Source: Rhina ancylostomus (lineage: Eukaryota). Taken from it: DNA of 64,000 nt. The notes beneath the pieces are model-generated. The model searched no databases. It was not told the DNA's origin and worked only from the letters and a program-made list of their open reading frames with translations. The stretch spans positions 98,165,836 through 98,229,835 of the forward strand of contig JARFYF010000001.1 in the NCBI GenBank assembly GCA_030265395.1. Direction: 5' to 3'. Both the position numbers and the translations under genes were made by a program. Each line of letters starts with the position of its first letter. The stretch's first letter is position 1. Shown here piece after piece: positions 14,668 to 16,703 of the stretch.

Positions 14668-16703
14668 GCAAGTCTCAAGTAGTAACTGTATTCAAGTCCC
14701 GCAGGCACAAATCTTCATCAAGTTATTCATCAGGAGTTCCTTCACCTGGTAAATAAACCCAGCAGCCAGGCATTCCGGGAGAGCTAACAAACCAGAATTC
14801 CAGTGCAGGGAGAAACCTCACTAACTGATGCCAACTGGAATTCCCACCCTCACTTTCCCAAAGCTGCTTTTATTTCTTTTTAATAATGGTAATTGGGCAA
14901 ATATCCTTGCACCACAAATAGCTTGCTGAGTGGGTGCTGTTGCTGCAAAATCACTGGTTGTCTCTCAGCCTTTCTTTACTGCTCACAACTCCTGGGTGAA
15001 TGCACTGTTATTATGCCATTGCTGCTGTTTTTTACTGTTAATGATAGCTATGGATCCCTTAAAATGATCACGGTTAAAGTCAACCGAAACATAGTGCTCC
15101 AGTTCGTAATTCTAAAGTAAAATTTAGGCTTGAGTATCAAGTAGCGTTCCCCATCATACTTCTTGTTACTCTATTGTGACACTTGATGAGGGGAAGAAAA
15201 TATACTCCCTAATTAACCCATGTAAATTTTTCTTTATTTTATTAATCCTTGTGATAAAAATGTTTAATTTCAGTCTGATCGTTCTTGTTTTAATTTGGCT
15301 CATACACAAAATTGAATCTGCAAGCATGTTGTGCGGACCATGGAGTTGTGTGCTTCTGCATTGGTTTGCCAGAAGCTTTATTGAAGTCTTTTATTGTCAC
15401 TCACACTGCTTTGATTTGATGTTGATTTGCACCCGCTGCTTTACTTCAATATGTAAAGTGCTTCTTATTTCTGTGAATTGTGTGCAACGTGTCAAACATG
15501 CTTCTCGGGGATCAGAAATGGTATGGTGGTGTGAACAGGATGGGCAGGAGCTGTAGTCTGAGTTTCTGTGACAGCCAGAGAGAAAGTTGGTTTTACTTGT
15601 CAGGGGAGTAAGAGTTAACCTCAATGCTGCATGACAAAACTCAGTAAATTCAAGATAGTGTGAGAAAGTTTTCCTCTCTCACTCTGTGGAAGGCACTGAC
15701 TCTAACTGGGATTTGGATCCACAGGTGCCTTCTGAGTACCTTGCCCAAGTGGGTTTCTTCATGCGTGAGAGGCATCGCAGTCAAACCCCATGCTTTCATT
15801 ACCCAAAAATCAACACACACATACACTCAAGAACAGATTATTGGAAAGAAGCTAGGACTGGTAGGCTTGGCTGATTTTTTTTTTCAATTTTCCCCCTGTT
15901 CCCAAGCTGAGGAAAACTGTTTTTAGTGCTCCTTCCTTGGCCGAGGTGAGTGAACTCACCACAAGCCACAGTTTTGAAAAGGAAAAGGTTGAAAAGGTGT
16001 AGGGGTAGGGAGCTGCCATAGCATAATGGGCTGAATGGCCTTCCTTTTTGCTGTGAAATTCCCTGATCCTATCAATCTGGGCTATAAAGGTCGGACCCAT
16101 ACTACAGCATGCATTTAATAAGTTAAAGATATAAGGAACTGCCTGTGTAATTCATTTTTAATCATCATAAATTGCATTCTATTCATAACACTATTCTTAG
16201 TTTTATGTAATTTGATAGCATTGATTGAATAAATCCATTAAATGTTAGGCTGGATGTCTTTGTACTTAGAGTGCAATTAAAGAAGGTGTAGACAATAGTC
16301 ACAGTTAATTATCAAGAGACAATCAGGGCACAATGCCCGACTAAGTAATCTTTAATTTAAGAGACACTGACTGTACAAGCAGAGGAAATACCTTACTTTT
16401 GGACAAAATAAGTTTACGGATCTTCGAGGCACTGGGGAGAGGAGCTGCCCTTTGGAGCACTCCATTGTTTACACTTTTGCAATATTAAGTTGCACCTTTG
16501 ATATGCTTCTAGCTGCTGGGAATGTTCAAATCTGGGGAGATGGTGGGTTGTGGGGGTGATGGTTGATGGTTTAATTTAGTTCTTTAATTCCGTTCAAGTT
16601 TCTTTTGTTCAACAACATATTGTGTTTGCTGTTTCAGGAGTAACTGCTGATTGTTTGGTATGTCTTTTCTTTCTCCTCTGTGTCTACGTTTGACTACAAT
16701 CAG

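Follow-up and report, generated by a model that had tools for sequence, protein, structure and literature searches.

Behind exon 10 of MEIS2 in Rhina ancylostomus the homeodomain reading frame stays open past a non-canonical GC 5' splice site and closes on a stop codon lying within an AATAAA, and the question raised by this locus is whether the segment encodes the end of a truncated protein or coding sequence that is spliced onwards. We analysed a 64,000-nucleotide stretch of contig JARFYF010000001.1 (the window), for which an initial annotation had predicted a short isoform ending here by a splice-versus-cleave switch. From 14667 the frame was found to run through 29 open codons to 14753, reading as that annotation had given it, with the TAA inside the AATAAA as claimed. 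Of 61,698 positions in the window, 21% begin a run of at least 29 open codons. The forward strand of the window has 75 copies of AATAAA (1.2 per kb); with the reverse strand included the count is 125, where shuffled sequence gave a mean of 89. Judged by sequence comparison, it is the conservation of the peptide that lies beyond chance; neither the open frame nor the AATAAA does so alone.

The gene was identified as MEIS2 because exons 11, 12a and 12b are present downstream of exon 10 (Table 1). The ray Meis2a model P0123, mapped onto the window, matched at 100% over exon 10 with its extension and over exon 11, and at 97.9% over exon 12b, which marks the window as cartilaginous-fish DNA. No earlier MEIS2 exon was given by tblastn in the upstream 14.6 kb (1-14608), and intron 9 is therefore longer than 14.6 kb. 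The first 2 kb of the window are richer in GC (51%) than the remainder, and 12 runs of N, totalling 1,180 bases, occur in the window.

Table 1. Features of the MEIS2 locus, in window positions.
Feature	Position	Strand	Remarks
MEIS2 exon 10, carrying the end of homeodomain helix 3 (...FINARRRIVQPMIDQSNRA)	14609-14667	+	
Upstream non-canonical GC 5' splice site, CAG/GCAAGT	14665-14673	+	8/9 match to donor consensus
Exon 10-prime, in-frame extension of 81 nt encoding 27 residues (GKSQVVTVFKSRRHKSSSSYSSGVPSP)	14668-14748	+	
Downstream GT 5' splice site, CTG/GTAAAT, phase 1	14746-14754	+	7/9 match to donor consensus
AATAAA enclosing TAA (14754-14756)	14752-14757	+	intron positions +4 to +9 of second donor
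Exon 11	16704-16814	+	alternative acceptor 21 nt inside, with the exon then starting at 16725
Exon 12a, stop-bearing cassette	17116-17211	+	
Exon 12b, coding part	19442-19728	+	ray Meis2a model mapping
AATAAA, likely real 3' end signal, comparison site	20787-20792	+	48% U downstream, rank 72/74

The 29-codon frame is cut after residue 27 by a second donor, a GT at 14749-14750, which lies 81 nt behind the GC donor, has the identical phase and is in phase with exon 11. When donors were scored as matches to the textbook consensus over 9 positions, this site was tied best among the 117 GT sites scored in 14668-16600. Relative to this donor, the closing G-K of the frame, its stop and the AATAAA fall on intron positions +1 to +9. 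Translation through a phase-1 GTAA(A/G) donor gives G-K, as it does at the donor of exon 11 in the window. RNA structure across both donors was considered and rejected (z = 0.15). The arrangement matches the Meis 'exon 10-prime', described as the product of an alternative 5' splice site by Irimia et al. 2011 (PMC3140891), in which the upstream donor was GC in 46% of the genes studied and the segment was detected by RT-PCR in vertebrates.

The upstream donor was compared with that of other loci. In a teleost-type locus (L001), the only vertebrate-looking one among the 80 of 159 loci kept from a metagenome scan, the GC donor is kept and GTAAAT stands at an offset identical to that of the window; similarity extends through GGTAAATA at the same offset and collapses beyond the donor. 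The upstream Gly codon permits GC or GT with the protein unchanged, and GC therefore likely keeps the site weak. Nearly all genomic loci without the segment, 43 distinct ones, have a GT donor after exon 10, whereas the window and L001 carry GC, in line with GC weakening the upstream donor. A Meis-type locus (L027) is an exception: its exon 10 is followed by a GC donor, although the segment behind it is unlike exon 10-prime.

Splicing of the segment in relatives was followed in gene models. When exon 10 and the tail together were used as a protein query, 205 proteins matched (best 120 of 205 examined). Of 297 proteins stored, the 109 in which exons 9 and 10 are spliced together and the segment start is present form the tally, which drops cnidarian, ctenophore and nematode forms by its filter, a false match (P0076) having been dropped beforehand. 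Within this tally, whose rows were retrieved with the segment itself as query and are not independent (isoforms, related species and computed annotations, with up to 15 members per looked-up cluster), 70/109 models run through exactly 27 residues and then into exon 11 in frame (59 vertebrate, 11 hemichordate), 12/109 read past the second donor, and 27/109 are partial, frameshifted or otherwise different. In those 70 models the segment is an internal insert, and the terminal tail proposed at first was not borne out: 0/109 models end at GK among the matches listed, where further cluster members could include a terminal form. When a mammal-type read-through served as the query instead, 105 matches were obtained, none of them a spliced model ending at GK. 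The initial annotation had also named a tail of the form GKSP.VTVFKSRKRK...PGK in some MEIS1 predictions; apart from a single prediction from Albula, this was recovered only as raw ORF calls on genomic sequence.

The peptide itself is widely conserved. It was found from cnidarians and nematodes through to mammals, its first half also occurs in ctenophore Meis, and the motif is internal in cnidarian, ctenophore, nematode and hemichordate Meis. The suggestion that the tail predates the MEIS1/MEIS2 duplication therefore holds, since the peptide is common to MEIS1 and far older than that (cnidarians, a ctenophore). All 27/27 residues of the window are identical in five ray Meis2a sequences (P0123, P0125, P0149, P0151 and P0155), which join exon 11 via either acceptor. 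Across 58 aligned sequences, selected for carrying the segment, residues G363, V368, V370, F371, K372, R375, S379 and P389 are invariant or conserved in at least 90%, giving a core of V-x-V-F-K..R plus the final Pro. In corals (L002-L007) the genomic frame continues with neither donor nor stop. No Pfam model matches the segment, a scan of bacterial genomes gave one match of 33%, which is at chance level, and a viral scan gave none. Cartilaginous fish retain an intact exon 10-prime in Meis1 as well as in Meis2, which makes them well suited to measurements of its inclusion and of selection on it.

Conservation of this kind could also be the residue of a near-vestigial segment, hardly spliced in and decaying, held by overlapping non-coding constraint or by slow evolution in cartilaginous fish. 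Irimia et al. (PMC3140891) reported at least 9 genomic losses of exon 10-prime and very low inclusion in bony vertebrates, and conserved non-coding elements are abundant in Meis introns. The segment is frameshifted in the Meis2a models P0018, P0150 and P0152 of Mobula birostris and P0154 of Narcine bancroftii, with close relatives intact, and these frameshifts may reflect ongoing loss or assembly errors. The Narcine model terminates at the equivalent of the window's second donor, and the Mobula birostris models keep the junction from exon 10-prime to exon 11 despite the frameshift, which hints at junction evidence that is independent of the frame. Against decay, the 27-residue length and V-x-V-F-K..R are kept in shark and ray Meis1 and Meis2 and across animals, and a comparison of the window with L001 over the first 13 codons shows two amino-acid changes and two synonymous ones. 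We consider a vestigial segment unlikely. The losses in PMC3140891 include zebrafish, Xenopus and mammalian Meis2, with stops in chicken Meis2; in contrast, the insert is in frame, though diverged, in a wolf Meis2 model and intact in turtle, duck and songbird models (P0043, P0005, P0137, P0141, P0143).

We therefore read the segment as Meis exon 10-prime (probability about 0.85), whose inclusion through the GT donor would probably yield a minor isoform in which 27 ancient residues stand between the homeodomain and exon 11 and the activation region is retained. This reading draws on the two donors, their 81-nt phase-preserving spacing, the 27-residue identity with ray models in which the extension is joined to exon 11, and the pan-animal conservation of the peptide. 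The splice event, and the very low rate at which bony vertebrates include the segment, are taken from the literature; the inclusion visible in models of relatives is that of computed annotations. Use of the GC donor would give the usual MEIS2, and use of the GT donor a MEIS2 with 27 further residues and the C-terminal region retained. By weakening the upstream site, the GC would let the downstream donor compete with it; the TAA and AATAAA would be intron bases of the second donor and be spliced out, and U1 bound at that donor would cover half of the hexamer.

The truncated isoform of the initial annotation would instead require a composite terminal exon, with both donors skipped and cleavage at the overlapping AATAAA, giving a MEIS2 with the homeodomain and a basic tail and without the activation region. 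The hexamer is present behind a non-canonical GC donor, as at composite intronic poly(A) sites, with one UGUA in the 100 nt upstream. Poly(A) sites carry a U/GU-rich element downstream of the cleavage site. The region from +20 to +65 past the AATAAA at 14752 has no U-rich element, its U content of 13% being the 3rd lowest of 74 forward-strand sites (median 33%), compared with 48% at the 20787 signal, and this argues against the working poly(A) signal that had been proposed. A further AATAAA at 19738-19743 lies 10 nt past the exon 12b stop codon, with average downstream U (33%). In L001 a TAC replaces the TAA, and no AATAAA or ATTAAA occurs in the following ~600 nt. Weakened donors do favour intronic polyadenylation (PMC8501991), and the primers of PMC3140891, which span exons 10 to 11, would be blind to a cleaved form.

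The stop itself recurs elsewhere. It follows GK directly in 10/22 distinct genomic read-throughs compared with 2/43 ordinary exon-10 donors, and by type in 7/9 mammal-type MEIS1, 2/3 mammal-type MEIS2, 1/7 teleost-type and 0/3 invertebrate-type read-throughs, the type labels being inferred from likeness to named proteins. A truncating switch would predict conservation of both the stop and the AATAAA; the stop recurs in those 10/22 read-throughs, and both are absent in L001. The stop after GK may be ancestral in jawed vertebrates. In other animals, an ordinary exon-10 GT donor (L066; 1/43) produces the same GK-stop with AATAAA. Both donors are read through in 11 teleost Meis1/Meis1b models (P0078, P0162-P0168, P0186, P0188 and P0254), some of them without an isoform number, which end in intron 10. 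Such ends accord with a composite exon and are either a real intron-terminated form or a retained-intron annotation artefact; their tails are unrelated, range from 5 to 36 residues beyond the donor and do not end at a common point. Given the splicing tally, the low downstream U, L001, L066 and these varying tails, we consider a composite terminal exon improbable.

Early in-frame stops in introns act as a decay safeguard, and regulated retention of intron 10 would use the stop in this way, sending unspliced RNA to decay or nuclear retention, with the read-through models reflecting such RNA. The recurrence of the stop beside the donor and the read-through models in teleosts and Narcine fit such a scheme. 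The stop is missing in 12/22 genomic read-throughs, however, and the conservation of the peptide is left unexplained, and we give retention little weight as the explanation of the segment. The stop and the poly(A)-like word are likely by-products of the second splice site and not a truncating switch, and we put only a slim chance on a minor cleaved or intron-retaining isoform.

A bolder proposal, to which we attach a low probability, is that exon 10 of jawed-vertebrate Meis is a three-way switch between the GC donor, the GT donor and cleavage at an AATAAA that forms part of the GT donor, with U1 and the cleavage factor in competition for one set of bases. If this were true, a cleaved competitor isoform, with the homeodomain and the ancient basic motif and without the activation region, would explain conservation of the segment despite scarce spliced inclusion, and the cleaved form would have left its visible trace in the teleost Meis1 models that terminate within intron 10. 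Cleavage at the overlapping AATAAA would give a truncated competitor of a major HOX/PBX cofactor, with its poly(A) signal embedded in a donor.

For the insert of the preferred two-donor reading, AlphaFold gave pLDDT below 50 and no secondary structure over residues 364-438, which predicts disorder for the insert. Solved MEIS structures extend no further than ...NRA, and the insert is absent from their constructs. A putative motif, V-x-V-F-K-S-R-R-x-K followed by Ser/SP sites, would lie beside homeodomain helix 3, and we tentatively suggest, with low confidence, that the insert would most plausibly serve as a short linear motif, modulating import into the nucleus, contact with DNA or the binding of partners in response to Ser phosphorylation.

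The event is already known, both as published alternative splicing and in public ray gene models. As in the exon 10-prime of PMC3140891, the segment in the window adjoins exon 10, has a GC donor upstream and an alternative donor downstream, and carries conserved coding sequence common to non-bilaterian Meis. Cartilaginous fish are absent from the accessible text of that study ('shark', 0 occurrences), in which polyadenylation likewise has 0 occurrences. Unlike the Meis2 genes for which that study gives losses or stops, the Meis2 of the window has the segment intact. Mouse long-read data (PMC13379096) describe, in the part accessible, seven Meis1 transcripts, two annotated ones being given without sequence, and 2/4 of the new proteins reach exon 10, both skipping the segment. 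The accessible texts of PMC3157405, PMC4901127 and PMC4973581 hold nothing on the exon 10-prime segment, and a literature search, with coverage mostly outside subscription journals, found no Meis intron-10 poly(A) site or truncated isoform described.

U1-controlled composite intronic poly(A) sites, at which U1 bound to a donor suppresses intronic cleavage (PMC8501991), share with the window a non-canonical donor followed by an intronic AATAAA; the window hexamer differs, as far as those sites are described in the accessible part of that paper, in overlapping a second conserved donor and in having no U-rich downstream region. The RefSeq ray Meis2a models (Hypanus, Mobula hypostoma, Hemitrygon and Pristis), which are computed, are identical to the window at 27/27 residues and use both exon 11 acceptors. 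A MEIS D motif downstream of the homeodomain is described in PMC2959044, which cites Mukherjee and Burglin 2007; as far as the accessible text of that paper describes it, this motif is likewise conserved, lies just C-terminal to the Meis homeodomain and is present in ctenophore Meis, and by position and description exon 10-prime is a candidate for the MEIS D motif.
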